From Candidatus Levybacteria bacterium RIFCSPHIGHO2_02_FULL_40_18 (GTDB taxonomy: Bacteria; Patescibacteriota; Microgenomatia; Levybacterales; GWA1-39-11), in NCBI GenBank assembly GCA_001782235.1, contig MFOC01000004.1:32945-96944 (forward strand): a stretch of 64,000 nt of DNA. The letters are read 5' to 3'. This document shows, in pieces, positions 3,461-42,026 of the stretch. Both the position numbers and the translations under genes were made by a program. The notes under the pieces were generated by a model. It was given only the letters and a program-made list of their open reading frames with translations, did no database searches and was not told the DNA's origin. Each line of letters begins with the position of its first letter. The stretch's first letter is position 1.

Positions 3461-3462
3461 CC

Positions 3463-3590
3463 TAGAAAATAGTTCTTGGAAAATGGAAAATAGTAATGGA
3501 AAGTGGAAACTAGAAAATAGATAAATTAAAACTAATTTCCAATCTCTAATTTCCATACCATTTTCTAATTTCTAATAACCAATTTCTATT
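3463..3590 (+). repeat. MITE-like AT-rich hairpin repeat, copy A (rplJ-rplL spacer)
   Basis: The left arm ctagaaaatagttcttggaaaatggaaaatagtaatggaaagtgg pairs with the right arm ...ctaatttccataccattttctaatttctaataaccaatttctatt. It is homologous to copies at 20628, 34531, 35818 and 40661. Confidence 0.6.
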
Positions 3591-7141: not shown

Positions 7142-9520
7142 CTATAGGTTTTTCAGGAGCTCTTTGGAAGGTTCGTGGTTTGGGTCAATATTCTTAAGTA
7201 TATATTCAAGTGATTCACGGGCCTTTTTGTTATATTCAAAAGATCGTGAAGGATCGCTCTTCGCTAAGCTTGAGTAGAAAAGCCCCATAGCATAGTACGC
7301 ATCAAGATAATTAGGTTTAATTTTTAATGCTTCATTAAAATATCGAACGGCGGAATCTATATCTTGCTTTTGGTTATAAAAGAGCGCCAGATTATAAACA
7401 AGCTTTGCATCAGTCGGCGCAAGTTTTCGAGCCTGATTTACGGTATCGATTGCAAGATCCAGGTATTTTGGATCTGCTTGTGCTAACGCGTAAAAAACGC
7501 GCGCCCGGGTCTTAAGAAATATGACGTTCTTGGGATGTCTTCCTGTTATTGCATCGCTTAAACGTTCTGCCTCTTCTCTAAACTCTGCCGCCTGTGTTGA
7601 TTGTTTTTGATCCGAGAGTAGGAGAGAAAGAGTTGCCATATTAATTGAAAGTTCATCCTTGTATAAATCTTCTCCCGGAAGCATTTTTGATGCATCTGTT
7701 AAATAAGTGTATGCCTGTACATACTCGCCTGCTTTGTTCAGGTTATAACCTAATGCATATTTCCTGTCTGCAAGAAAAAAATTTAAGAGATAAAATTCAA
7801 GATATAACGCAACTAAAGCGATAACTACTATGAATGAAGCTCGACTTGGGCTTATCTTTCCAACCTCCTCTTTTGCCAAAGAGATTGTTCGAAGACGCGA
7901 CAGAGTTTTATCTTGAGAAAGATCAAAATAAAGAATCGGAAACGTAAACAAAAACAAATTCAAAATTACAACCGAGAAGCCAAAAAAATTAGAGACGGCT
8001 ATAGCAAGATATGCTCCTATTATTCCTATTAATATTGGATGATAGGAGTTTTTAGATTTTAGTGATTGCCTCAGGGCGTAATAGAGAAAAAGAACGATTA
8101 TTAATAAATAGGAGGCAAGTCCCGCGGCGCCGGTAGTTGCAAGATAATTTAGATATTCGTTGTGCGCCTTATTATAGAGGTAATCCCATTCAGAAGTTAG
8201 GTTATGGGCTAGCGGCTTAACATTGTAATAAGCATACGCATAAGTTTCAACACCTGTTCCAAACAAGGGATTTCTCTTGAACAATTCAATTGCGCCTCTC
8301 CAGACAATAAGGCGAATTTTGCTTGATTCTGTGCCGCCAAGTTGAATGTTATTTGCTCCTTCTAGGCCCTCGCTTGTCGCTTTTCGAATTTCGCTTGTCG
8401 CGGGTGATTTGTTCGTTAAGTTTTGTAAACCAGAAAGTGTTAGGTATTTATTGAGAGATTCGATTGGAGTTCCAATCAGGAAAGTGACGATTGCAAAAAT
8501 TAAGACAGAAACTATTATATATCTTCCTAAATCGTTCCTAAGGATTTTTCGCTTAAGTTCATTTAGGTTTTTGAATAATAAGATACCAAAGAAGAATAGA
8601 AGTCCGATTCCGAGACCTACAAAACTCGATTGGGAAGCTGTCCACAAGAGCCCAACGTAAAAGAGAATAGACAATAGTAAATAGATAATAGGGAATAGGT
8701 TGTTTCGGCCCTCGCGAAGTTTGTAAAACCCGAATCCTAATCCGATTGGGATCAGCGCCGCAAGATAGGTGCCAAGCCAGTTTGGCTGACCAAGAGTTGA
8801 GAAAATTCGAACAGTCGGCTGGAAAGCCTCTGTCCAACAGGAAACATTAAAGCTCCCACGAAAAACAAAGCATGTTGGATCGTAGCCAAAGTGAGAGGGG
8901 AGGCCCCACAACGTAACGACGAGCCCAGACAGTAAGGAAATAGTTAATAGTGAATAGGAGATAGGTTGTCGTTGATCGGTTAGGAAGCCCGTTTCGTTGT
9001 TCGGTGATGCTGAACGTAATTCTTTACCGATACGGGCATTGTTACCGTTTACCGATTGACGACCTGTGAGGTTGGTGGCAAATGCGTAGTACAAAAATAT
9101 GTAAGCGATAATCGAGAGGAGGCCGCCATTGAATCTTGAATAATAACCCCAGAGAGAAACGTGAGAGTCTATGGACAGAATTGTAGAAATAATTTGCGAG
9201 ACTAAAAAGAGAGCGATTGGAATATCAAGGGGAGTTCGCCTAATTTCGACCTTTCCCAAAAGAATGCTTTTTGCCGACCATAAAAAGAAGATAAAAATAG
9301 TAAATCCAAAAACCAACCACATTTTATTAAATTCAAAGAGTTCATATGTGTCGGGCCACATCGCGAGGGGAGTGATAAAGAAGAGAAGGTAAAAGGAATA
9401 TTTAATGGCAGAATTAATTCGATCAATCCAATCCGAAACCATGAATAAATTTGATCCCGATTGAATCGGGATTTCGCTCACCCCGCCAAAGCGAGGTTCG
9501 CTCAAGTTTAGCATAATCAA
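7142..9520 (-). CDS. Polytopic membrane protein with O-antigen-ligase-like (Wzy_C) domain and C-terminal TPR repeats
   Basis: About ten predicted TM helices in the N-terminal two-thirds. The C-terminal third has TPR-like repeats (AYTYLTDASKMLPGE ... AVRYFNEALKIKPNYLDAYYAMG). Confidence 0.65.
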   Translation of the reverse strand: MIMLNLSEPRFGGVSEIPIQSGSNLFMVSDWIDRINSAIKYSFYLLFFITPLAMWPDTYELFEFNKMWLVFGFTIFIFFLWSAKSILLGKVEIRRTPLDIPIALFLVSQIISTILSIDSHVSLWGYYSRFNGGLLSIIAYIFLYYAFATNLTGRQSVNGNNARIGKELRSASPNNETGFLTDQRQPISYSLLTISLLSGLVVTLWGLPSHFGYDPTCFVFRGSFNVSCWTEAFQPTVRIFSTLGQPNWLGTYLAALIPIGLGFGFYKLREGRNNLFPIIYLLLSILFYVGLLWTASQSSFVGLGIGLLFFFGILLFKNLNELKRKILRNDLGRYIIVSVLIFAIVTFLIGTPIESLNKYLTLSGLQNLTNKSPATSEIRKATSEGLEGANNIQLGGTESSKIRLIVWRGAIELFKRNPLFGTGVETYAYAYYNVKPLAHNLTSEWDYLYNKAHNEYLNYLATTGAAGLASYLLIIVLFLYYALRQSLKSKNSYHPILIGIIGAYLAIAVSNFFGFSVVILNLFLFTFPILYFDLSQDKTLSRLRTISLAKEEVGKISPSRASFIVVIALVALYLEFYLLNFFLADRKYALGYNLNKAGEYVQAYTYLTDASKMLPGEDLYKDELSINMATLSLLLSDQKQSTQAAEFREEAERLSDAITGRHPKNVIFLKTRARVFYALAQADPKYLDLAIDTVNQARKLAPTDAKLVYNLALFYNQKQDIDSAVRYFNEALKIKPNYLDAYYAMGLFYSSLAKSDPSRSFEYNKKARESLEYILKNIDPNHEPSKELLKNL

Positions 9521-12115: not shown

Positions 12116-12470
12116 ATAGAGACTGATTTGGAAGATCGCGGTACATTTGAGGATGACAGCTAATGACACGTTCATAATTACAATTTCCTTCAAATTTTAG
12201 GGACAAATTTTTTGCCCCGTAGCAATCTCCCGAAATCACTCATTTAAAGTTCGCTCTTTAAAAATTATTGTTCAGAAAACAAGACAATCGCAAAGATTGG
12301 ATTTCTTTGGAGTTTTGTTTTTGTTGGACAAACCATAAAGTTGTTCAGATAGTGGTAGGATCTTTTTCGAACATTTTTGTTCGAGAATTTTCTTTGACAG
12401 AGTACATTTTTTTGCCAGGTACCATTCGGTACCTGACTGCAAAAATTTTGACTCCGTCAAAATTTTTTTG

Positions 12471-14066
<1,596 letters not shown>

Positions 14067-14248
14067 AGTTTTTAAGATGTAAGTAATCTATCTTACATCT
14101 TACATCTTAGTTACTTATTTACTAGTTTTTCCTGGCTCCTGGGACCTTTTAGTACAAAAGGAATGGAGTATCCCGATTTAATCGGGAAAACCTATTCCTA
14201 CCACTATCTGAGCAACCTTCTGGCGAAGCCAGATCCCGCTCCGCGGGA

Positions 14249-14524
14249 TTATTGCTTTCCCCAGCTTTTTGTAATTTGTAATTTCAAGTCTTCTTTCGCT
14301 CTGTGGTTTAATTTTAACCGTTTCTCTCTTTTCGTGGCATCGAATTTATTTCTGTAGGCTTCATAGTAAATTAACAGCCAAGGTGCATATCGCTTGGTGT
14401 AATTACTTAATCCTTTATTATGTTGTTCGACTCGTTTTTTTAAATCGCGAGCAAATCCAATATATAAATCTCCGTTTTTTGAGCTTTTTAAAGCGTAAAC
14501 GTAATACATAATTTTATTATACAA
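14249..14524 (-). CDS. GIY-YIG nuclease family protein (UPF0213/YhbQ-like)
   Basis: YVYALKSSKNGDLYIGFARDLKKRVEQHN matches the GIY-YIG core. It is a ~90-aa single-domain protein. Confidence 0.75.
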   Translation of the reverse strand: MYNKIMYYVYALKSSKNGDLYIGFARDLKKRVEQHNKGLSNYTKRYAPWLLIYYEAYRNKFDATKREKRLKLNHRAKEDLKLQITKSWGKQ

Positions 14525-14639
14525 TCTACGAATAAAAGTGGAATGTCTTTATGTTTCCCCTCAGTGTTTGCCGCAGGGGATTTTTTGTAATGTTAATTAC
14601 ATACTTGTTTTTTCTTTTTGCTATTTTATAATTATTCTC

Positions 14640-15560
14640 ATGAAAGAAGACGAACGAATACTTCTAAGAGAACATAGAGAAAGTGCTTTGGCTTCTGATT
14701 TGCTTGCTCAGGAGGCGCTGGATGTAGCACGAAGACTATTTCCCCAAGATACAGCTCTTTCCCTTATGTCCACAAAATATGATTCAAAAAATCCAAATTC
14801 TTACGCATTTTATAGTACAATAGTTAGTCATATTAGGCAATATCCGAGTGAAGATCAAAATAATTTTTTTTTGGAAGTTTGGGGTCCTAATGGCATAGAC
14901 GTTCCAAATGCTGAATTATTAGCGAGCTATCTTACGAGGTGTAATACTATTCCGTGGTTCTCTCCAAAAGAAGAAGTAGATGTAGCAATTTTACAAGCAC
15001 ATATCAGCGAGCATTTGTCCGCCTTAAATTCGGAAAGTTTACCAATAACGCTTATCAAAAATGATTGGAGCGTAGAAGTTACAACAGAAATGGAACAGGA
15101 GGAGATAGAGGATGGTCCTGGAACCCAATTTTTTGCCGCTTTTGGAAATGTTAAGAGTAGAGAATTGGAGGGTATGGGAAGTCCAATATGGTCATCGATT
15201 TGGGTAACTGCTTCGAATCCTGTTTTTGAAGCAATCAGCAAAGACAGCGAAGATAAGTTCATGGGTAAATTAGAAGGAAGGTTGATGTTTGGAGGTGGAA
15301 TAGAAGATTTTAAAGAAGACGAAAAGAGAAGTACGGGATTATACTTTGCTGGTTGGACAGCTGCAAGTCATGCGTCAACTGGCGCAAAATATTATGTATA
15401 CATGGATGAGATGAAAAAGTTTGGATTTTCTAATAATCCCATGGAATCATTGATTGATATTTATAAACTAGGATATTATCCGATGGGAGTTTTAGAGCAA
15501 GAAGTAGATGGTGAGAAAAAAAGAGTATTTGGAATTTTCCAGCCTCCAATACAATCTTGA
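14640..15560 (+). CDS. Hypothetical protein
   Basis: The ORF track gives 14538..15560. The likely start is the internal Met (MKEDERILL). No motif recognised. Confidence 0.4.
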   Translation: MKEDERILLREHRESALASDLLAQEALDVARRLFPQDTALSLMSTKYDSKNPNSYAFYSTIVSHIRQYPSEDQNNFFLEVWGPNGIDVPNAELLASYLTRCNTIPWFSPKEEVDVAILQAHISEHLSALNSESLPITLIKNDWSVEVTTEMEQEEIEDGPGTQFFAAFGNVKSRELEGMGSPIWSSIWVTASNPVFEAISKDSEDKFMGKLEGRLMFGGGIEDFKEDEKRSTGLYFAGWTAASHASTGAKYYVYMDEMKKFGFSNNPMESLIDIYKLGYYPMGVLEQEVDGEKKRVFGIFQPPIQS

Positions 15561-15589
15561 GCATCTATTATCTATTTTCTATTCCCTAT

Positions 15590-15925
15590 TTACTGCTTCG
15601 GTAAAGTGCAGCAGAAAGATTCGCGGCCTAAAGAGGTGGTACACATTTCATTACCTTCGTACTTAACAATTTCTCCGGGGTTACAAAAAGTTTGAGACCG
15701 GCAAGTATTTGTAGATCCGTCTGGGTTTACGGCAGGACATCCGGGAGATGTAGTAACTTGCGCAGACGGGACTTCAGTTGCTTGAGGTGTCAAGGTTTGG
15801 CGCTGGTTAACAAGGAATATCGTTACTGGAAGAGAGATTGCCACAAAAAGAAAAACCAATCCCCCGAGAACCTTCATCCCATCATTCATTAAATTTAGTA
15901 TCGCGCGAATAGAGCAATTTGTCAA
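15590..15925 (-). CDS. Small secreted/membrane-anchored Cys-rich protein
   Basis: An N-terminal TM/signal segment (KVLGGLVFLFVAISLPVTIFLV) followed by a domain with 8 Cys. The start may be an internal Met. Confidence 0.4.
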   Translation of the reverse strand: MTNCSIRAILNLMNDGMKVLGGLVFLFVAISLPVTIFLVNQRQTLTPQATEVPSAQVTTSPGCPAVNPDGSTNTCRSQTFCNPGEIVKYEGNEMCTTSLGRESFCCTLPKQ

Positions 15926-15983
15926 ATCTTGCCAAGACTTAATAGATTTCGAAGCTAATTTATGTTAAACTGTTAAGTCTTTT

Positions 15984-16055
15984 GATCCGGTGGCGAAGTG
16001 GTAACGCGGGGGTCTGCAAAACCTCTATGCGAGGGTTCGATTCCCTTCCGGATCT
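15984..16055 (+). tRNA. tRNA-Cys (GCA)
   Basis: Cloverleaf folded by hand. Acceptor GATCCGG/CCGGATC, anticodon stem GGGGT/ACCTC with loop CTGCAAA, T-arm GAGGG-TTCGATT-CCCTT, and U73 discriminator. Confidence 0.8.
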
Positions 16056-16080
16056 CAAAATTTGTTAAAATATGTAGTTC

Positions 16081-16124
16081 GGGCAACTAGTTCATCGGTT
16101 AGAACGGTCGCCTAAGGCGACAGG
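16081..16124 (+). pseudogene. Truncated tRNA-like sequence (5' half only: acceptor strand, D-arm, hairpin), abutting the GIY-YIG ORF
   Basis: GGGCAAC-TA-GTTC-ATCGGTTA-GAAC-G-GTCGCCTAAGGCGAC has an Asp/Arg-like D-arm but no T-arm or 3' acceptor strand. The 3' portion is replaced by the GTG start of the GIY-YIG ORF. Confidence 0.4.
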
Positions 16125-16127
16125 CGC

Positions 16128-16373
16128 GTGATTAAATATTTTGTATATGTTTTGAGAAGCGAAGTAAATGGCCGACTCTATACTGGATCAGCCGTTGATC
16201 CGGACTTAAGACTTGAGCAACATAATACGGGTAAAAGTAAATATACAAAATCAACGCGACCATTTAAATTAGTCTACAAGGAGGAATATAATACTAGATC
16301 GGATGCGGTTCGAAGAGAAAGATTTCTGAAGACAGGAAAAGGAAGAGAGTTTTTAAAGAAAAAATTGGGGTGA
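16128..16373 (+). CDS. GIY-YIG nuclease family protein (UPF0213/YhbQ-like), paralog of 14249..14524
   Basis: YFVYVLRSEVNGRLYTGSAVDPDLRLEQHN. It has a GTG start, and its stop overlaps the first bases of tRNA-Ile. Confidence 0.7.
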   Translation: MIKYFVYVLRSEVNGRLYTGSAVDPDLRLEQHNTGKSKYTKSTRPFKLVYKEEYNTRSDAVRRERFLKTGKGREFLKKKLG

Positions 16374-16440
16374 TTGGCTCAGTGGTAGAGCGCGTTCCTG
16401 ATAAGAACGAGGTCGATGGTTCGATCCCATCATCACCCAC
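16368..16440 (+). tRNA. tRNA-Ile (GAT)
   Basis: Acceptor GGGTGAT/ATCACCC, D-arm GCTC-AGTGGTA-GAGC, anticodon stem CGTTC/GAACG with loop CTGATAA, T-arm GATGG-TTCGATC-CCATC, and A73. Confidence 0.8.
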
Positions 16441-20627: not shown

Positions 20628-20763
20628 CTAGAAAATAGTTATTGGAAAATGGAAATTAGTAATGGAAAATAGAGAATAGAAAATAGTTAATAATTAATAT
20701 ATTGCCAATTTATAATATCTAATTTCCATAACCATTATCCAATTACTAATAACCAATTTCTAT
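20628..20763 (+). repeat. MITE-like AT-rich hairpin repeat, copy B (ends at the thyA start codon)
   Basis: ctagaaaatagttattggaaaatggaaattagtaatggaaaatag ... taatttccataaccattatccaattactaataaccaatttctATG. Confidence 0.6.
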
Positions 20764-21718
20764 GAAAAAACATCAAGAATACCAATACCTAGATTTGCTT
20801 CGTGACATTATGAAAAATGGTGTTAAGAAGCCTGTTTTTAATAATCCGGGAGTAACTATTATAAGTGTGTTCGGGCGTCAGATGCGATTCGATTTGTCAA
20901 CCGACTTTCCACTTCTGACAACTAAGAAATTGTTTACGCGAGGAATTATTGAGGAACTTCTGTGGTTTATAAAAGGTGATTCTAACATTAAATATTTAGT
21001 TGACCGCAATGTTCATATTTGGGATGAGTGGGCATATAAACCGTATAAAAATCAAAAACTTAAAACTAAAAACTCAAAACTACTTTCGCAGGAAGAATTC
21101 ATAGAAAAAATAAAAACTCTACCAGCAAGTAATCCTTTTGTTAAAAAATGGGGAGATCTTGGGAATGTTTATGGAGTGCAGTGGAGGAGATGGAAAACTT
21201 CGGACGGAAGAACAATAGATCAGCTCTTATGGGCAATTGACAAACTTAAAAAAACACCAACTCGAAAACACATTATTGTTTCCGCATGGAATCCGGAGTT
21301 TATATATGAAATGGCCTCACCCGGCAAATCAATGGCCTTACCTCCTTGCCACACACTGTTTCAGTTGGATGTTCGTAATAAAAAACTATCCCTCCATTTA
21401 TACATGAGAAGCGCTGATTTTTTCCTAGGTGTCCCTTTTAATATCGCAAGCTATTCACTTCTGACCATGATGCTTGCTCAAGTAACGGGATTAAAAGTGG
21501 GTGAGTTTATTTTGACTTTTGGCGATGTTCATCTTTACAGCAACCACTTCAAACAAGTTCGTGAACAATTAAAAAGGAAGCCAAGACCTTTTCCAAGGAT
21601 GAAAATTAATCTCAAAATTAAAGATATTGATGATTTCAAAATCGAAGATTTCAAACTAGTCGGTTACAATCCCCATGATCCAATAAAGGCTCCCGTAACA
21701 GTAGTCGGAGGATTTTAG
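20762..21718 (+). CDS. thyA: Thymidylate synthase ThyA (with internal insertion)
   Basis: Active-site region MALPPCHTLFQLDV, plus DLLRDIMKNG and SAWNPE motifs. A ~50-aa insertion is comparable to the L. casei-type ThyA. Confidence 0.9.
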   Translation: MKKHQEYQYLDLLRDIMKNGVKKPVFNNPGVTIISVFGRQMRFDLSTDFPLLTTKKLFTRGIIEELLWFIKGDSNIKYLVDRNVHIWDEWAYKPYKNQKLKTKNSKLLSQEEFIEKIKTLPASNPFVKKWGDLGNVYGVQWRRWKTSDGRTIDQLLWAIDKLKKTPTRKHIIVSAWNPEFIYEMASPGKSMALPPCHTLFQLDVRNKKLSLHLYMRSADFFLGVPFNIASYSLLTMMLAQVTGLKVGEFILTFGDVHLYSNHFKQVREQLKRKPRPFPRMKINLKIKDIDDFKIEDFKLVGYNPHDPIKAPVTVVGGF

Positions 21719-33561: not shown

Positions 33562-34485
33562 TTATTTGATCTCGAAATAATTGAAGACGTTGCGGGCGAG
33601 TTGGGCTATGCGTTCGGCGGCACCCTGAGGCGAATTTGATTCGGATAGAACTACAAATAGTATTGGATCTTTTCCAAAAATAATTCCCGCGTCATGTTTA
33701 AATCCGCCTATTTCTCCGGTTTTATGAGCAACTTCAACTTCAGCCGGTAAATATTTAGGAATCCTGTCATTTAACTTTTGCTGGACTAATAGATCGAGCA
33801 TTTTTTTGGAATATTCGCTGTCAATCATTATTCCCTGATATAACTTTTCAAAAAAGAGAGCAATGTCTTCCGCTGTAGTTTTTGGCGGCTGGCCAAGTCG
33901 TGAATTCCTAAATCCTTGATCGCTCATAAAACTTGAAACATTCGAATTTCTGATCTCTGAGACTAAGAGAAGAGCGGCGTAATTATGGGAGATAGTAATC
34001 ATTTGATAGATTGCATCACTAACTTTCATTGTGACCATTCCTTCTGTGAGCTCCGCCGAATCTGTCCCAATTTTAAACAGCTCATCTAATTCTTTTACAT
34101 CACGGCTTAAGGTTTTATCTTGCGGGAGTCTTCCTTCCTTAATAAATTTATAAGAAGTTCCCAAAACCCAAAGTTTATAAAGACTTGCGGGTTCATATAT
34201 CCTTTTTTCGTTTTGGGAAAAGGATTCGCCTGTCCGAAGATTTTTGATTACAATTGCATAAGCACCTCGCGTTCCCGAAAGGGAAGATGTAATCACATCC
34301 GCAAGAGACTTGCCCGCAATGCTTTCTAATAAAGTCTTTGTTTCGGAGAGACCTTGGGCCAAGGGGGAAATAATCTCTTGAAATTTTTGCTGTCGAGAAA
34401 AAGGGGATGGGAAAAAGTGAGACAGAACAAAAGAGAAAATTATTCCACCAATTATTATAAAAAGAAAATCGCGACCGCGCAGCAT
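33562..34485 (-). CDS. Serine hydrolase of the class A beta-lactamase / PBP-like family
   Basis: SLYKL (SxxK), SHN (SDN-like) and HKTGEIGG (KTG) motifs appear in the expected order. It has an N-terminal signal/TM segment. Confidence 0.6.
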   Translation of the reverse strand: MLRGRDFLFIIIGGIIFSFVLSHFFPSPFSRQQKFQEIISPLAQGLSETKTLLESIAGKSLADVITSSLSGTRGAYAIVIKNLRTGESFSQNEKRIYEPASLYKLWVLGTSYKFIKEGRLPQDKTLSRDVKELDELFKIGTDSAELTEGMVTMKVSDAIYQMITISHNYAALLLVSEIRNSNVSSFMSDQGFRNSRLGQPPKTTAEDIALFFEKLYQGIMIDSEYSKKMLDLLVQQKLNDRIPKYLPAEVEVAHKTGEIGGFKHDAGIIFGKDPILFVVLSESNSPQGAAERIAQLARNVFNYFEIK

Positions 34486-34530
34486 TACATCGAATTATAC
34501 CATCCCCTTCGGTTAAAATTCTAAGCACGA

Positions 34531-34672
34531 AATCCTAAATTCTAAACAATATTAACTAATAGACAATGGTTGTTAGAAAATAGAAAATGGTAATGGAAAA
34601 TAGAGAATGGAAAATGGAATAGTATTGTTTCCAATTACCAATTTCTATTACTGGTATTTGTTTAGGATTTCG
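34531..34672 (+). repeat. MITE-like AT-rich hairpin repeat, copy C (with terminal inverted repeats AAATCCTAAA...TTTAGGATTT)
   Basis: aatcctaaattctaaacaatattaactaatagacaatggttgttagaaaatagaaaatggtaatggaaaatagagaatggaaaatggaatagtattgtttccaattaccaatttctattactggtatttgtttaggattt. Its exact reverse complement is at 40661..40802. Confidence 0.65.
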
Positions 34673-34690
34673 ATATTCGAATTTCGGATT

Positions 34691-35809
34691 TTAGAGTCTG
34701 GCGGGGTTTATTCGTAGGATTTTGTCGTTGCCTTGGCGCACGGTTCCCCTGCCGTCGCGGTTGCTTGTTGTCACATAGAGCATACCGTCTGGTCCCAAAA
34801 CTACTTCCCGCAGCCTTCCATACTCGTTTTTAAAATGTTCGACCAATTTTTGTTCGCTTATTTTATATTCATAAAGCGCAGATCCCCTAAGCCCTGCAAA
34901 GAATATCGAGCCATTAAAATATGCCGTTCCGGCCGGTGCCCAAGTATCGCCTGATCCAGAATTAATAATTGGTGTTATTAAGCCTGATCGCGTTTCGACT
35001 CCCTGAATTTCAGGCCATCCGTAGTTTTTTCCAGCCTGGATCAGGTTAAGTTCGTCGAGTCCGCCCGGTGATCTTCCATGTTCTGTTGACCACAATTGAC
35101 CATTGTCATCCCAAGTAATTCCTTGAGGATTACGGTGTCCGTATGAGTAAATTATAGTATCAAATGGGTTACTTGGTCCTCTATTTCCATCTCTTGTAAC
35201 ACGCAGGATTTTTCCCGCAAAAGAATTCCTATCCTGCGCTAGAGATGGTTGCTGAGCATCTCCTGTAGTTATATATAGAAGCCCATCAGGGCCGAATTTT
35301 ATCCGGCCCCCATCGTGATTTGGCGCTCCCGGAATTTGGCCGACGATTATTTTTTCTTCCAAAAGTTTCTCTCCCTCAAACTTATATCGAACAACACGGT
35401 TTAGAGTGTTGCTGCCCGAGGATCGGTAGGTATAATAGAGGTAGATATTTTTATTAGTTTCAAAATTGGGATCAACGGCCACCCCGTGAAGTCCGCTTTC
35501 TGAGACTTGATGAACGGGAATTGTTGCGATTGGGTCGGATACGTTCCCGTTTGTATCAACCAGGCGAACACGTCCCGGCCGTTCGGTGACAAGCATTCGG
35601 CCATCAGGAAGAAAAGCCATTGCCCACGGCACTTCAAGATTCTCCGAAAGGATAGAAACAGTTTGGGCTTCACGCTCCGAAGGAGTGATAGTATCCGAAG
35701 GCTGCAAAATTCGGGACTCGGGGGGCCTGATTAGAACGATTGCTACCAGAAGCAAAACAAAGATACCAAGCCCGACTATTATTTTTGTCATAGTTTTGAT
35801 ATTATACAT
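34691..35809 (-). CDS. Soluble PQQ-dependent sugar (glucose/sorbosone) dehydrogenase-family beta-propeller protein
   Basis: LEVPWAMAFLPDGRMLVTERPGRVRLV ... HDGGRIKFGPDGLLYITTGD ... EHGRSPGGLDELN are typical sGDH/Ylil-family blades. It has an N-terminal TM anchor. Confidence 0.8.
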   Translation of the reverse strand: MYNIKTMTKIIVGLGIFVLLLVAIVLIRPPESRILQPSDTITPSEREAQTVSILSENLEVPWAMAFLPDGRMLVTERPGRVRLVDTNGNVSDPIATIPVHQVSESGLHGVAVDPNFETNKNIYLYYTYRSSGSNTLNRVVRYKFEGEKLLEEKIIVGQIPGAPNHDGGRIKFGPDGLLYITTGDAQQPSLAQDRNSFAGKILRVTRDGNRGPSNPFDTIIYSYGHRNPQGITWDDNGQLWSTEHGRSPGGLDELNLIQAGKNYGWPEIQGVETRSGLITPIINSGSGDTWAPAGTAYFNGSIFFAGLRGSALYEYKISEQKLVEHFKNEYGRLREVVLGPDGMLYVTTSNRDGRGTVRQGNDKILRINPARL

Positions 35810-35817
35810 TAGAAAAT

Positions 35818-35940
35818 AGTTATTGGAAAATGGAAATTAGTAATGGAATGTGGAAAATAGAAAATGGATATTAAAATACTAATTTCTAATATCTAATTTC
35901 CGAACCATTTTCTAATTTCGAATAACTAATTTCTTATTTC
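35818..35940 (+). repeat. MITE-like AT-rich hairpin repeat, copy D (immediately upstream of the cupredoxin RBS)
   Basis: ttagaaaatagttattggaaaatggaaattagtaatggaatgtggaaaatagaaaatgg ... ctaatttccgaaccattttctaatttcgaataactaatttc. Confidence 0.6.
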
Positions 35941-35956
35941 AAGGGGGTGAGAAATA

Positions 35957-36397
35957 TTGAATAGAAATTTAATAATAATTGCGGTTGTTGTGATAGCTAT
36001 AATAGCGGGTGCGGTTTTGTTTTTAGGAGGACAGAGCTTAGGTCCTTCAGTATCTCCAACACCAACTGGGACTGTTCAAGAACAGCTGTCTCCAACCGAC
36101 GCAGTGATGAAAGAAGAAGGGCAGGCTACGGATGAAGCAATGATGGAAAAGGAAGTGTCTATCGATATCGCCAATTTTGCTTTTTTACCTAAAACCATGA
36201 CACTTAAAAAAGGGGCAACTGTTACCTGGATCAATCAGGATACGGTCGCACATACTGCAACAGCTGACGATGCAAGTTTTGACACGGGACTTTTAGCAAA
36301 GGGAGAATCCGGATCAGTAACCTTTGACAAGCCCGGAACTTACTCTTATCATTGCACGCCGCATCCAAACATGAAGGCAACAATAGTAGTTGAGTAG
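35957..36397 (+). CDS. Membrane-anchored cupredoxin (plastocyanin/pseudoazurin-like blue copper protein)
   Basis: Type-1 Cu ligands in the canonical spacing: H (VAHTAT) ... C-x2-H-x4-M (YHCTPHPNMKATIVV). It has an N-terminal TM helix. Confidence 0.8.
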   Translation: MNRNLIIIAVVVIAIIAGAVLFLGGQSLGPSVSPTPTGTVQEQLSPTDAVMKEEGQATDEAMMEKEVSIDIANFAFLPKTMTLKKGATVTWINQDTVAHTATADDASFDTGLLAKGESGSVTFDKPGTYSYHCTPHPNMKATIVVE

Positions 36398-36405
36398 CTC
36401 AGCTG

Positions 36406-37758
36406 TTATTCTTCAGGAAGGTCGTATTCATAATGGTCATCTTGATCAACAAAACGGGAGGATTTCTGTTCATGAGAGAGCAGGGGATTTACATAAAATC
36501 CCTTTAAATCGCGCCTCCCTATGATTATAGGAAATTGAAGGTGGGAGCGGTCGGCAACTGATGCAATTGTTGATATTTTTTTTCCGCCAAGGTTAAACTC
36601 AAGTTTTATCGCGGGTCTTACCCCTCCGCCGGATGCTGAAGATACATGAATATTATCAGGAAGAAGGTGAAATCCAAATTCTTCAACAATCGATTTGTCG
36701 ATAGAGCTCCTGTATGCCCCGGTGTCAATTTTTGCCTTGTATTCACCGGATTTGCCGTTAAAAAAAATTGTTACAGGTTCTATTACAGATAGAATTTTTC
36801 TTTCCTCCTTAACTTTATGGGAAAATTTCTCCGCAAAAATAGACCTTGCTATTTCAACGCCTCGTTCGGCATTGGGGACATTTAATGCCTCGACCCGCTC
36901 GAGTCTTTCACGAAGAGACGCAAGATTTGCATTTTGTATCGAGAGGCCGGGCCTTGCATTAATCTCAAGAACAATCGGACCCCTTTTTTTTTCCACAACT
37001 ATATCTACGCCCGCAAATCCGAGTCCCGATACAATTTGAGCGCGCGTGGCCAATAGCATAATTTCTTCCCAATTAGGTATTTTAATTCCGGAAGTTTTAA
37101 TCTTAGTACCAGGGATAAACTTAAGATATTTGTTTCTTAGGATTGCATATTTAGTGATACCGGTTCGCAGTCCTATTCCAACACCTATTGCCCCTTGGTG
37201 TAAATTAGCCCTTCCATGAGATTCTTCAGTGGGAATTCTCAGCATAGCCATTATTGGAATTTTGTTAAAAACAATTATTCTAATATCAGGCAGTCCCATT
37301 GATCCAAACTTTTTAAAAAACCGATGAGGGACAATTCGTCCTTCAATGTACGCCTTATCTGGAATCGATTGGAGAGAGTAAATCCCATCAAAAATATCAA
37401 GGATATGAGATTTAATTTGTTTTAATGTATAAGCCCTACTGCTAATTGTTGTCCCGGAAAGCCCATCCCAATTCTTAAAGACCAATATCCCTTCCCCCCC
37501 ATAGCCTCTTGCCGGTTTTATGGCAAAACCTTCTTTTGGTAAGTCCCAGGAGTAGTTTTTAAGCCCCTTTCTTGTCGCAAAAGCCTGAATGATCGTGGCC
37601 GTGGGGATATTGTTCTTGATAAATAGCTTCTTTGTCGTGAGTTTATCATCCGCTGCAAATTTTGCCCTTCCCTTGTTGTAGCGATTCAAATAGAGAAAAT
37701 TACGGGCATTCATGCCCAATACTTGATTACTGACTGACATAGCGTCGAAGCTCGGCAA
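36406..37758 (-). CDS. RimK-like ATP-grasp ligase fused to a C-terminal retropepsin-like (DUF785-type) domain
   Basis: N-terminal ~330 aa have an ATP-grasp layout (Gly-rich loop ARGYGGEGI, the EINARPG-like VLEINARPGLS). The C-terminal ~110 aa carry a D-T/S-G aspartyl-protease motif (KIDTGAYRSSI) as in RimK-associated DUF785. Confidence 0.65.
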   Translation of the reverse strand: MPSFDAMSVSNQVLGMNARNFLYLNRYNKGRAKFAADDKLTTKKLFIKNNIPTATIIQAFATRKGLKNYSWDLPKEGFAIKPARGYGGEGILVFKNWDGLSGTTISSRAYTLKQIKSHILDIFDGIYSLQSIPDKAYIEGRIVPHRFFKKFGSMGLPDIRIIVFNKIPIMAMLRIPTEESHGRANLHQGAIGVGIGLRTGITKYAILRNKYLKFIPGTKIKTSGIKIPNWEEIMLLATRAQIVSGLGFAGVDIVVEKKRGPIVLEINARPGLSIQNANLASLRERLERVEALNVPNAERGVEIARSIFAEKFSHKVKEERKILSVIEPVTIFFNGKSGEYKAKIDTGAYRSSIDKSIVEEFGFHLLPDNIHVSSASGGGVRPAIKLEFNLGGKKISTIASVADRSHLQFPIIIGRRDLKGFYVNPLLSHEQKSSRFVDQDDHYEYDLPEE

Positions 37759-38644
37759 ATCTCTTATATTCCGTAAGTCTCAAGCCAAAGTAGCGTCCTA
37801 AAACTATATTCAGCGGCAGCAGGACAAGAATTATTTCAGGATAAAGCAATATATAGCCTCTTATAAATTCAATAGATAAAATCGCATACCCAATACTTCC
37901 CAAAAGAAGCGTAAAAAAAGTTACAACTATTGCCGGCTTTGTGCCTCTTGAGAGCTGGAGGCCCACGATTTTATCACTTAGAAGAATAAGAAGCAGCACC
38001 GGAAAGAAGGAAAGCTGGGTAATAGAGATAAGACCAAATGAAGCGCTTGTTACCAGACTGACAAACACGAAGACTGAAACTATAAGCATAGATATAGCCA
38101 TTTTTGGAAGCTGCATTATCCTGATTCGTTTAAGAATATATCTTGCAATGATCGAGGCTAAAAGTATGGTTGATAGAAGTATAGCACCGGCCTCCGGGCC
38201 TGTTGCTACCAGGGTAATTGCCAAAGCTATAGGGACGAGCATTTCAAGAGTTGGAAATCCAAGAATATTTCTCACAAATACAACCATGGTAGCAAGAAAA
38301 GGTAGAAGGAGAATTAATATAATTGTATTGGCAGGGATGCCGTTTCTCACCGCATATTGAACAAAAAAGCCCATAAAGTCGGTTAGCCCCGGGTCATTAA
38401 TTTGTCTTTTTGAGAAAAGAGCCAAGAATTCTTTCTTTGCCTTCTCCTCCTCAGGCTTTGTCAAATCTTCTTCCTTTCTTTTTTCAAGTTCCTTTTGTTG
38501 TTCTGCAGATGGGGTGGCAAGTTCTCCTGATTCGGTCGAAATTAAAGGCGTAGGCAAAACATTTATGGGTATTTGAGCAAACGACTGCCCGCTAAAGACT
38601 ACAGAGAAAGTTGCCAAGAATAATGCAAAAATCTTCCGCTTCAC
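37727..38644 (-). CDS. Polytopic membrane protein (7-8 TM) co-encoded with the ATP-grasp/protease gene
   Basis: Signal peptide, an extracytoplasmic charged segment, then ~7 hydrophobic helices. Its 3' end overlaps the ATP-grasp start. Confidence 0.5.
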   Translation of the reverse strand: MKRKIFALFLATFSVVFSGQSFAQIPINVLPTPLISTESGELATPSAEQQKELEKRKEEDLTKPEEEKAKKEFLALFSKRQINDPGLTDFMGFFVQYAVRNGIPANTIILILLLPFLATMVVFVRNILGFPTLEMLVPIALAITLVATGPEAGAILLSTILLASIIARYILKRIRIMQLPKMAISMLIVSVFVFVSLVTSASFGLISITQLSFFPVLLLILLSDKIVGLQLSRGTKPAIVVTFFTLLLGSIGYAILSIEFIRGYILLYPEIILVLLPLNIVLGRYFGLRLTEYKRFAELRRYVSQ

Positions 38645-38689
38645 GTGCTTATATTATCAAAAATCGATAAAATAAGCTATATAGTCCGC

Positions 38690-38945
38690 ATAGCACTCCG
38701 CGACGCCATCCAAGACCTCTGATGGTAGTCGCTGCGCGGCAGAAAATTATCTTCGTTTCAAACCGGGAGAGGGCCTCGATTGTCGCTGGTTGTAGCCCAT
38801 TGCGCTTAATCTTCTGCGAATTTCATTTGGATTGCTTCTTGGATGATTGCCCCAGTATGCTTCCAAACCTCGCAGTCCACTCGCAATATATACAGTCGTA
38901 TCTCTTCCTCTAGGTTCGCCTTCGGCCTGAACCATAATGGTCCTG
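38690..38945 (-). ncRNA. GC-rich (~50%) structured non-coding region: candidate small RNA or riboswitch-like leader of the 7TM/ATP-grasp operon
   Basis: No credible ORF on either strand. GC content is well above surroundings. There are multiple long-range inverted repeats (GCGACTACCATC/GATGGCGTCGC; ggttcaggccgaaggcgaacc). A consensus promoter lies immediately upstream on the minus strand. Confidence 0.35.
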
Positions 38946-38950
38946 TCTAA

Positions 38951-38980
38951 TATATAATTATATTCACACTTTTCACGGCC
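38951..38980 (-). promoter_or_regulatory. Sigma-70-type promoter (minus strand) TTGACA-18 bp-TATAAT
   Basis: Reverse complement reads cttgacaggccgtgaaaagtgtgaatataat. Confidence 0.45.
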
Positions 38981-39000
38981 TGTCAAGCACGAGTTGACTA

Positions 39001-40167
39001 CTAAATAAGTTTCTTCTGTTTAAGTTCTGTATAGTAGATTTTCTTCAGCGCAAGCAGGGCTCCAACCCCCGAAAGCGTAATTAAAATGTCTGTTATGAAA
39101 TTAACAATAGGGATAATGGTTAATATAAGGTAGACCACGATGCCGACAATATAGGCCCAAGCTTTTGCATTTTTATTCCCAGCCTTTGCGAGGACAAAGC
39201 GCCCAAGCGTATAGATCGCAAAAATTCGTCCAAACCAGAACATAAGAAGAAAAACTATGAAGAGAGTAATTGCTGCGGGGATTCCAAAAAGGGTTATGAA
39301 TAGAATTATTCCTAAAATTGGGGTCACTATTAAGGCCATAAAGCCTATTAGAAGAGCCAACCCGAATTTTGTTCTTATGTAGTCTGATGCACGAGTAGTA
39401 TAGTTTGGGAAAAAGAACATTAATGCCAATCCTACAATGATTAACCACAGAATATCGACAAGTTTTACCATGAGCGCAAATCCCGCAATAGCGGTAGCAA
39501 TTCCTTTGTCAAAATCTTTACCTTTGGTGGCCGCGCGAGGAGGTGTTTCATGCTTAATTTTACCCGAAACAGACGCGCCCTCTTGGATATTTACTTCGTT
39601 CTCGCTCCAATAAGTGAGATTTCCGTCAACATTGGCCTCAGGAGATAAAGAAAGCTCGCCGACTCCTGCCAGGATATCCCCGCCAACAGAATTTCCGATC
39701 AAAACACTTCCTCCGCCAATTGTTACTCCCCGTCCTATTGGAGCAAAAATCTGTACGCTTCCGCCGCCGGCGACAAGGCTCCCCTGAATAACGGTTAATC
39801 TATCAATCGTGATATTTCCACCGCCAACAGTAACATTTCCGCCAATATCAGCGCCGTTTAAAATAACGTTACCGCCGGCGGCTCTAATATCTCCCTGAAT
39901 ATTGCCTGAGACCGTTACGTTTCCGCCACCAGTCAGAAGGTCACCATTTATTTTCCCTTCAACTATAATTGTTCCACCGGCAACATACGCATCGCCATTA
40001 ACAGTTCCCAATATCTTTACAGTATCTCCTGCTGCAAAATAGTCGTGGTCCACCATTTCTGTTGCAGGCAGAAGCACATTCTTATTTTTCTCAACGGCGA
40101 AAACTGGGATTGCAACTATTAGAGTTAAGACGAAAAGAACAAGAATCGAACTAATTATTCTCTTCAT
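39001..40167 (-). CDS. Membrane protein with bactofilin-like Gly-rich beta-helical repeats and C-terminal TM helices
   Basis: Signal peptide, then ~10 repeats of the G-D/N-x-x-V/I-x-G-G type (GDAYVAGGTIIVEGKINGDLLTGGGNVTVSGNIQGDIRAAGGNVILNG ...), then 4 hydrophobic helices. Confidence 0.5.
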   Translation of the reverse strand: MKRIISSILVLFVLTLIVAIPVFAVEKNKNVLLPATEMVDHDYFAAGDTVKILGTVNGDAYVAGGTIIVEGKINGDLLTGGGNVTVSGNIQGDIRAAGGNVILNGADIGGNVTVGGGNITIDRLTVIQGSLVAGGGSVQIFAPIGRGVTIGGGSVLIGNSVGGDILAGVGELSLSPEANVDGNLTYWSENEVNIQEGASVSGKIKHETPPRAATKGKDFDKGIATAIAGFALMVKLVDILWLIIVGLALMFFFPNYTTRASDYIRTKFGLALLIGFMALIVTPILGIILFITLFGIPAAITLFIVFLLMFWFGRIFAIYTLGRFVLAKAGNKNAKAWAYIVGIVVYLILTIIPIVNFITDILITLSGVGALLALKKIYYTELKQKKLI

Positions 40168-40283
40168 AGTTCGAATATATCACCAGTGAACTGTTGTTTC
40201 AAGAGGTTAAATTCTCTATTGACCCCGCCCTTCGCGAAGGGCGGGGTTGACAAATAGTTTTCATTCGAATACTATTTAACCAA

Positions 40284-40610
40284 ATGGTTAAGAGTTCCAT
40301 GTTTCTTAGTGAGGTTTTTCATTCTCTGTCTGATCCAACAAGAAGGAAAATTCTTGAAGGATTAAGTAAGCGTCCTCTGACCGTTTCTGAGATTAAGGCT
40401 CCTTTTAGAATATCGCTTGTTGCCATTTCAAAACATTTAAAAGTTTTGGAGCGTGCAAAACTTATTCGCCGCCAGAAAATGGGGAGAGAGCATATGATTC
40501 GTCTTCATCCCCAGCCGCTTCGCGATGCTCATCGCTATATAGAAAGTTTTAAAAAAGACTGGAGCCGCCAACTAGACGCCCTTGAGAAATTCCTCGAACG
40601 CAATACTTAA
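40284..40610 (+). CDS. ArsR/SmtB-family transcriptional regulator
   Basis: LSDPTRRKILEGL ... LTVSEIKAPFRISLVAISKHLKVLERAKLI is a winged HTH of the ArsR type. Confidence 0.8.
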   Translation: MVKSSMFLSEVFHSLSDPTRRKILEGLSKRPLTVSEIKAPFRISLVAISKHLKVLERAKLIRRQKMGREHMIRLHPQPLRDAHRYIESFKKDWSRQLDALEKFLERNT

Positions 40611-40637
40611 AACACGAAAAACAAAATCCTAAACCCT

Positions 40638-40656
40638 AATATCCCTCCGGGCCGGA
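40638..40656. repeat. GC-rich palindromic short repeat (CCTCCGGGCCGGAGG) adjacent to MITE copy E
   Basis: ccctccgggccggagg shares the GGCCCGGAGGG / CCCTCCGGGCC core with repeats at 345-395, 45262-45335 and 47353-47398. Confidence 0.5.
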
Positions 40657-40660
40657 GGCT

Positions 40661-40802
40661 AAATCCTAAACAAATACCAGTAATAGAAATTGGTAATTGG
40701 AAACAATACTATTCCATTTTCCATTCTCTATTTTCCATTACCATTTTCTATTTTCTAACAACCATTGTCTATTAGTTAATATTGTTTAGAATTTAGGATT
40801 TC
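40661..40802 (-). repeat. MITE-like AT-rich hairpin repeat, copy E (exact inverted copy of copy C)
   Basis: The reverse complement of 40661..40802 matches 34531..34672 base for base in my comparison. Confidence 0.65.
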
Positions 40803-42026
40803 GTGCTTCGAATTTGGGAGTGGGTGTATAATGGATTTATTATGAAAAAGGGGGTTGCCACATTTACGCTGGATCACGGAAGGTGCCCGCCATGGCTGTT
40901 TAATCGAATGGTGAATTTAGGGCGGGAGATGACTCGGGTTTTGATCGAGGAATATGGTCCTGATGAATTTGTTGAACGAATCTCAGATCCGGTTTGGTTT
41001 CAATCATTAGGTACCGTTCTCGCCTTTGATTGGAACGCATCCGGACTTACAACAATCTTGACCGCCGCGTTAAAAGAGGCGATTCGTGGGCAAGAAAGGC
41101 AATTCGGAATCTTTATTTGTGGAGGAAAGGGCGGAACTTCAAGAAAAACTCCGGATCAAATTCAATTTTGGGGAGAAAGAATCAGTCTACCGGAGAAATC
41201 AACTGAACAGTTAATTACAAACTCCAAAATGTCAGCAAAAGTTGATTCGGCCCTCGTTCAAGATGGATACACACTTTATCACCACGCGTTTTTCTTTTCA
41301 AAAAATGGCGCATGGGCGGTAGTACAGCAGGGAATGAATACTAATGCGAAGTCTGCAAGGAGATATCATTGGTTCGACAGGTTAACAACTGACAATGGAC
41401 AACTGACAACTGACAATGAAACAATCGATTTCGTAAATGAGCCGCATAAAGCGATTTCTGCACAGACTCGGCATGCAAATGTTCTAAATTTAGTCGCCGG
41501 CAAGAGTTCTAAAACTCGCGAAACTTCGGTTGATCTAATTCGCGAAGGTTATAAAAGGGTGAAAAGCGATCTTGAGCTGCTTCGTAAACATTCAAATGAA
41601 ATGTCAAAAGTGGTCGCTTTTAGTCAGGATGGGGAGGAGTATATTGCCATGGAGCTTTCTCGAAATGATTTCTTTCATCATCCGGTTGAATTAGAAAATT
41701 TTGCTAACTCTAAATATCTGGATCGAATTTTGCAGAAACTTTCGGATAGAAAGCCCGAGGACTACAAATCGCTAGTTTCATTCCAGGGGGTAGGTCCAAA
41801 GACGGTTCGTGCGCTCTCTTTAGTCTCGGAAATAATTTACGGTGCAATGCCTTCCTATATAGATCCGGCACGATATTCATTTGCCCACGGCGGAAAAGAC
41901 GCAATACCGTATCCTGTGGATCGAGAAACCTATGACAAAACAATCGAAATTATGCGAAAAGCAGTAAATCGTTCGCGCATCCCATTCACTGACAAGCAAA
42001 AAGCCCTACGCCGCCTCGCGGCGTAA
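40803..42026 (+). CDS. Hypothetical protein, DUF763-like
   Basis: 407 aa. The N-terminal GVATFTLDHGRCPPWLFNRMVNLGREMTRVLIEEYGPDEF resembles DUF763 family members as I recall them. The start may be the internal MKKG. It contains a small in-frame tandem repeat (LTTDNGQLTTDNE). Confidence 0.35.
   Translation: MLRIWEWVYNGFIMKKGVATFTLDHGRCPPWLFNRMVNLGREMTRVLIEEYGPDEFVERISDPVWFQSLGTVLAFDWNASGLTTILTAALKEAIRGQERQFGIFICGGKGGTSRKTPDQIQFWGERISLPEKSTEQLITNSKMSAKVDSALVQDGYTLYHHAFFFSKNGAWAVVQQGMNTNAKSARRYHWFDRLTTDNGQLTTDNETIDFVNEPHKAISAQTRHANVLNLVAGKSSKTRETSVDLIREGYKRVKSDLELLRKHSNEMSKVVAFSQDGEEYIAMELSRNDFFHHPVELENFANSKYLDRILQKLSDRKPEDYKSLVSFQGVGPKTVRALSLVSEIIYGAMPSYIDPARYSFAHGGKDAIPYPVDRETYDKTIEIMRKAVNRSRIPFTDKQKALRRLAA

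Follow-up and report, generated by a model that had tools for sequence, protein, structure and literature searches.

An inverted pair of MITE-like palindromic repeats, members of a dispersed intergenic family, flanks an apparently ancestral gene block in Candidatus Levybacteria

What does it mean when a block of genes in a small bacterial genome is bounded at both ends by the same sequence in opposite orientations? The repeats may have carried the block to its site, they may turn it over, or they may be intergenic passengers that settled beside it. This question is raised by a 64,000-nucleotide stretch of contig MFOC01000004.1 (called the window throughout, at its full length) from a population of Candidatus Levybacteria, which belongs to the Microgenomates within the candidate phyla radiation (CPR) and is known from groundwater metagenomes. 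Two copies of a short repeat, named C and E, enclose there about 6 kb that contain a sugar dehydrogenase, a cupredoxin and an ArsR-type regulator, among other genes. The original prediction for this locus described the copies as miniature inverted-repeat transposable elements (MITEs). The evidence reviewed below makes it probable that C and E belong to a lineage-specific, hairpin-forming intergenic repeat present in at least four copies, that the block between them was not moved by these repeats, and that the orientation found in the window is the ancestral one.

The pair itself is real. A repeat search of the window returned two arms, 34516-34670 and 40661-40815, which are 155-nt reverse complements at 99% identity separated by 5990 nt. 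By script comparison, the sole mismatch over the 155 nt falls at 34522 (t in C, g in E), and the exact reverse-complement run amounts to 148 nt (34523-34670 and 40661-40808). The boundaries first proposed (34531-34672 and 40661-40802) were close, although the outer end lies 15 nt further out and identity stops at 34670, not at 34672. Since independent contigs from at least five samples cross both copies, the pair is not an assembly artefact. These contigs (L001, L002, L011, L017, L018, L022, and L023) derive from two sources, the ANAN16 scaffolds in ENA and JGI, and are 99.97-100% identical to the window; this disposes of a collapse or misjoin at the repeats, which had been named as one of the outcomes that would undo the original prediction. 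In addition, the 124-kb JGI contig Ga0209542_10000301 contains a stretch identical to the window.

The same JGI contig carries two further near-identical copies, so that at least four (C, E, R4, and R3) are found within about 54 kb of the genome. R4 occupies the rpmE/prfA spacer at about 78.6 kb in window coordinates, and R3 lies 3′ of cysS at about 88.3 kb. The window holds five members of the family, namely C, E and three shorter relatives (elements A, B, and D in Table 1) that form an older subfamily, and two more full copies stand just beyond it. The earlier view that C and E belong to a scattered set of small, non-coding, palindromic repeats is thus well founded. All four near-identical copies lie in stop-to-start spacers. 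Three of them share one orientation with respect to local transcription, their inner end adjoining the upstream stop codon; R4 is placed the opposite way. C and E are mutually inverted because they occupy the two spacers that bound a block whose outermost genes are transcribed outwards. As for the shorter relatives, element B runs directly into the start of thyA (window 20755-20770, ..CCAATTTCTATGAAAAAAC..), so that any Shine-Dalgarno sequence would have to lie inside the element. A partial member of the short subfamily was also noticed about 4 kb past R3 (contig L111, 14025-14103), preceded by a run of TATCAA(A/G)AG units.

The repeat is non-coding and palindromic, and no open reading frame (ORF) is needed to account for it. 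It measures 155-192 bp with inverted ends reading AAATYCTAAACAA, and the hairpin folds of the copies are better than those of shuffled sequence (z from -2.8 to -4.3). The arms consist of degenerate tandem heptamers (TRF period 7), and in R3 the outer end (L111 9760-9841) is made of 11.7 perfect tandem heptamers TTAGATA, in register with the 7-nt period of the arm. This array looks as if slippage had multiplied one arm unit, and its length could vary. The element has a 135-nt core, bounded by the inverted ends AAATTCTAAACAA and TTGTTTAGGATTT, without a single difference among C, E, R4, and R3; beyond these ends some copies have outer layers (AAATTCTAAGCACG.. and ..AGTGCTTAGGATTT). The tails are quite different: those of C (21 nt) and E (37 nt) are distinguished by five differences and a 16-nt indel. 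E and R4 have the long form in common (192 nt in the four-copy alignment, 193 nt with one mismatch by script); the identity of R4 extends over 155 nt with C and 185 nt with E. No element matched an Rfam family at the gathering threshold, nor was there any match at E <= 1 within 34400-41000. Exact-pattern scans of a genome contig collection (47 nt) and a metagenome contig collection (44 nt) gave no match either; as the pattern proved correct, both collections evidently lack this population.

Gene order in related Levybacteria bears directly on the history of the block. A DUF763-based scan of GTDB representative genomes was of no use for synteny, its best hit having 63% identity and no neighbours in common. 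Suitable relatives were found through RecR homologs and contig look-ups: L106 and L107 (RecR 81%) and L108-L110 (RecR 75%). The order in L106/L107 is S2, EFTs, M50, RRF and RecR(+), then GSDH(-), ATPgrasp(-) and 7TM(-), ArsR(+), DUF763(+), and further on bPH_2, P-type ATPase, RRM_1(-) and F420 ligase; in L108-L110, RecR is followed further on by MTase(+), Blac2(-), a hypothetical gene, GSDH(-), ATPgrasp(-) and 7TM(-). Protein identity between the orthologs in the window and in the relatives ranges from 58 to 87%. Order and orientation agree with the window on both sides, and the right-flank succession from DUF763 through bPH_2, P-type ATPase and RRM_1 to F420 ligase is kept too. The orthologous spacers in L106-L110 are short and free of the element, nhmmer searches at the related loci of L106 and L108 detected no family member, and the spacers there are too short for the repeat; the relatives are other species, in which insertion boundaries cannot be read. 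Because order and orientation are kept with the same flanks in these repeat-free relatives, the GSDH-ATPgrasp-7TM-ArsR backbone appears to be ancestral and in place, and the window orientation, as judged from gene order, is apparently the ancestral one. The two bounding spacers received their repeats at a later time. Thus, the backbone does recur in related genomes in the same order, as an in-place neighbourhood and not as a mobile unit. Cupredoxin and DUF8173 are missing from the otherwise syntenic blocks of L106 and L108 and are lineage-specific additions inside this conserved neighbourhood. Element D adjoins the cupredoxin insertion. It is also worth mentioning that the ArsR-DUF763 spacer of L106 (14352-14430) contains a different palindrome, with arms built from GTTAAAR units in tandem and with TATAAT-N11-ATG after it. 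That another heptamer-periodic hairpin occupies this promoter-proximal spot suggests lineage-specific versions of one kind of element.

To what class should the repeat be assigned? Several traits of MITEs are present: it is short and non-coding, has inverted ends, occurs in several dispersed copies, and is absent from the corresponding spacers of relatives. Nonetheless, no direct repeat flanks any of the four copies at any boundary tried, so the target-site duplications for which a search outside C and E had been proposed were not found. Likewise, the genes called over about 110 kb (0-70 kb in window coordinates plus the loci X and Y) gave no Pfam match to a transposase or recombinase. The region examined contains no Y1_Tnp match of the kind that marks a REP-associated tyrosine transposase (RAYT; REP, repetitive extragenic palindrome), and the elements measure 125-192 nt as against the 20-40 nt of a REP. 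As the target duplication is wanting and no partner insertion sequence (IS) was seen in the 110 kb, the element is best called a MITE-like intergenic palindromic repeat; it is not proven to be a MITE.

The idea that C and E are the ends of a compound transposon which brought the 6-kb block to its present site rests on geometry, that is, on identical inverted copies at both ends of the block. It is very improbable, given that relatives without the repeat have the backbone and both flanks in synteny and in the same orientation, that no transposase was found nearby, and that there is no outer duplication (the sequence to the left of C is ...cggtta, within ...ccccttcggtta, and that to the right of E is gggagtgggtg...). 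Moreover, the segment shows no compositional break, and the repeat also resides in two further, unrelated spacers. The composite element that the original prediction offered as a vehicle for the block is accordingly abandoned. A programmed switch, in which a site-specific recombinase would act on the inverted repeats to produce phase variation, might be suggested by the presence of a regulator (ArsR) among the bracketed genes. It is extremely improbable: no invertase or integrase domain occurs among the genes called between 24.7 and 50.6 kb, the repeats exceed typical invertase sites ten-fold in length and recur at unrelated loci, and with a -10 box of its own at each flank gene, a flip would switch no promoter.

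Another possibility is that the segment really flips in the population, with recombination between C and E giving two isomers, larger inversions among all four copies, and an appreciable inverted subpopulation. Homologous recombination could plausibly act on an inverted repeat that is exact over 148 nt, as had been proposed, and the mosaic identity among the copies suggests that they do recombine. An inverted junction, DUF763/repeat/GSDH end, exists in two different MEGAHIT k141 contigs, L004 and L005 (from the samples behind ERZ27254752 and ERZ27254756; L005 is found in three sample records), and only there. Furthermore, the 76.5-kb JGI contig L019, also recorded as L112 (3300025314, Ga0209323_10000034), joins cysS to the beta-lactamase flank at 7770-7975 through a hybrid repeat with the tail of R3 and the outer end of C, which is the junction expected of an inversion between C and R3. 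Against this, every contig that crosses both copies has the window orientation. The reciprocal junctions were not seen: beta-lactamase/repeat/ArsR is absent from 23 contigs for each of the two genes, and Y/repeat/GSDH from 23 contigs with the Y protein and 14 with GSDH. The cysS gene and the Y protein have consecutive accessions in four NCBI assemblies, and the L019 join is probably a chimera. With regard to the MEGAHIT contigs, a k-mer assembler working at k = 141 cannot link the flanks across 148 nt of exact repeat. The contig breaks at 34656 and 40624/40764 are explained by the identity of R4 to C (155 nt) and to E (185 nt), with whose boundaries they coincide. The result is a three- to four-way tangle in the graph, and the DUF763-GSDH joins therefore carry no read support. 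On these grounds, together with the lack of a reciprocal junction, the MEGAHIT joins were rejected as evidence of inversion, and flipping at an appreciable frequency is considered unlikely.

The identity pattern deserves separate attention. Perfect identity had been taken to imply a very recent duplication. The identity is real, but because the core is identical in four copies while the ends differ sharply, gene conversion between copies or nested insertion is as good a reading as recent copying; the contrast between no core differences and five plus a 16-nt indel in the tails favours conversion or nested insertion over the simple ageing of fresh copies. A more far-reaching version of this idea would make the heptamer palindromes a CPR-specific intergenic class that spreads and is homogenised with no transposase involved (gene conversion, or nested insertion into palindromes of greater age, would be examples) and whose copies drive real 6-kb and 53-kb inversions in the natural Levybacteria population; it is a long shot. 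As regards the interpretation preferred here, a dispersed repeat that came to lie beside an ancestral block, some observations weigh against it. A simple model of recent copies of one element does not predict an identical core with different termini. Without a target-site duplication or partner transposase, transposition of the repeat would have to be assumed. The view of the genome spans about 110 kb only, and the L004/L005 (DUF763-GSDH end) and L019 (cysS-beta-lactamase) joins may be real recombinants.

Under the interpretation of a dispersed intergenic repeat, the copies might have spread by means of a putative trans-acting function or by recombination, and the 135-nt core could have been kept identical either by recent copying or by conversion between copies. 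Occasional recombination between C and E could turn the 6-kb block over. This would be an almost neutral event, since transcription of the two end genes runs out of the block and both flank genes keep a -10 box of their own.

Table 1. Positions, in window coordinates, of the repeats and of the genes in and around the bracketed segment.
Feature	Position	Strand	Remarks
Copy C, short form, 176 nt	34516..34691	+	Long imperfect hairpin; DNA fold z = -4.3
Core, 135 nt	34536..34670	+	100% identical in C, E, R4, and R3 (four-copy alignment)
Tail of C, diverged, 21 nt	34671-34691		CGATATTCGAATTTCGGATTT; extends to the stop codon of GSDH
Copy E, long form, 192 nt	40624..40815	-	40661-40815 is the reverse complement of C; RNA fold z = -3.1
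Tail of E, 37 nt	40624-40660		Includes the 16-nt GC hairpin CCTCCGGGCCGGAGG; common to R4 beyond the window
Element A, short subfamily	3462..3588	+	rplJ/rplL spacer
Element B, short subfamily	20628..20762	+	Abuts the thyA start codon
Element D, short older subfamily	35810..35934	+	125-nt palindrome between GSDH and cupredoxin, upstream of the cupredoxin gene
Bracketed segment	34692..40623		GSDH(-), element D, cupredoxin(+), ATP-grasp/RimB-like(-), 7TM_transglut(-), 356-nt spacer, DUF8173(-), ArsR(+)
Beta-lactamase2, left flank gene	33562..34485	-	Pfam
GSDH, PQQ-type glucose/sorbosone dehydrogenase	34691..35809	-	PF07995; 71% identical to the L106 ortholog
Cupredoxin	35957-36397		Pfam
DUF8173/bactofilin-like (faint) membrane protein	39001-40167		Pfam
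ArsR-family HTH regulator	40284..40610	+	Stop codon 13 nt before the inner end of copy E
DUF763, right flank gene	40842..42026	+	Pfam; start MKKGVATF

The bracketed segment is unremarkable in composition. The gene content originally assigned to it agrees with the precomputed Pfam matches: GSDH, cupredoxin, ATPgrasp_ST with a RimB-like tail, 7TM_transglut, DUF8173 with a faint bactofilin match, and an ArsR-type HTH. The "GC-rich structured region" (38655-38950, minus strand) lost its status, as its fold is no better than that of shuffled sequence (z = 0.15) and it has no Rfam match. The surrounding spacer (38645-39000, minus strand) has a perfect TTGACA-18-TATAAT match (38986-38957), from which some 310 nt lead to the 7TM/ATP-grasp operon, and some gene callers place a 62-aa ORF in it.

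The -10 boxes of the flank genes are found just outside the two copies. A TATAAT box on the minus strand (34499-34494, read from the sequence) lies 16 nt past the outer end of C, and another (40827-40832) lies 11 nt past the outer end of E, ahead of DUF763. These boxes were considered as a possible part of the element and rejected: the one before DUF763 belongs to the flank, because L106 has the same TATAAT-N11-ATG at this gene and lacks the element. Three nucleotides past the left-hand box (34483-34493, minus strand), ATGTAATG precedes the beta-lactamase start and forms a start-stop mini-ORF that overlaps the annotated ATG; this may be due to chance. Elsewhere in the window (12464-16440), what comes after the 16S rRNA gene is not a 23S gene but a 340-aa ORF that has no Pfam match, small GIY-YIG ORFs, tRNA-Cys and tRNA-Ile.

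CPR bacteria are usually considered poor in mobile DNA. The locus adds to a CPR genome a previously undescribed family of small palindromic repeats; a full-text literature search found no paper describing such elements in these bacteria. It reveals neither a new mobile cassette nor a switch. From a practical point of view, identical repeats of 150-190 bp are the places where public assemblies of this Levybacteria population break or are mis-joined. An NCBI contig (L016; GCA_001782635.1, MFPG01000005.1) corresponds to window 34650-40716, a 6067-bp orphan cut inside both copies, and the metagenome contigs L008-L010 and L015 likewise consist of just the 6-kb block. Alternative joins appear in several MEGAHIT contigs and in one from JGI. 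A core that stays identical while the ends diverge also offers a case, small but testable, of concerted evolution among scattered repeats.

How does the Levybacteria repeat compare with known systems? Its arrangement at this locus resembles the composite transposons Tn10 and Tn5 in that a gene block is enclosed by two identical copies in inverted orientation; however, C and E carry no transposase, there is no flanking duplication, and the block is, as judged from relatives, ancestral at its site. A likeness is also found, by description, in REP palindromes and the bacterial interspersed mosaic elements (BIMEs), and in enterobacterial repetitive intergenic consensus (ERIC) sequences, which are also imperfect palindromes confined to spacers, without target duplication and with species- or lineage-specific sequences. 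REP/BIME and ERIC-type palindromes are known substrates of recombination and gene conversion. REPs are 20-40 nt long and tied to a RAYT (Y1 transposase) gene, whereas the Levybacteria repeat is longer and no RAYT gene was seen in the region examined. By description, ERIC sequences lack the heptamer periodicity of the Levybacteria repeat. Among bacterial MITEs, the Correia elements of Neisseria, the RUP elements of Streptococcus pneumoniae, and Nezha of cyanobacteria are the obvious counterparts; the target duplication of Correia and Nezha is TA. By description rather than by sequence comparison, these elements and the Levybacteria repeat are alike in being small (about 125-190 bp) and non-coding, with inverted ends and a hairpin that takes in the whole element. 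They are also alike in having multiple dispersed intergenic copies near gene starts and stops, near-identical enough to break short-read assemblies. In contrast to them, the Levybacteria repeat shows no target-site duplication at its four copies and no matching IS or transposase in the 110 kb covered, and it is set apart by arms built of tandem heptamers, a perfect 12-unit heptamer array in one copy, and an identical core with diverging termini.

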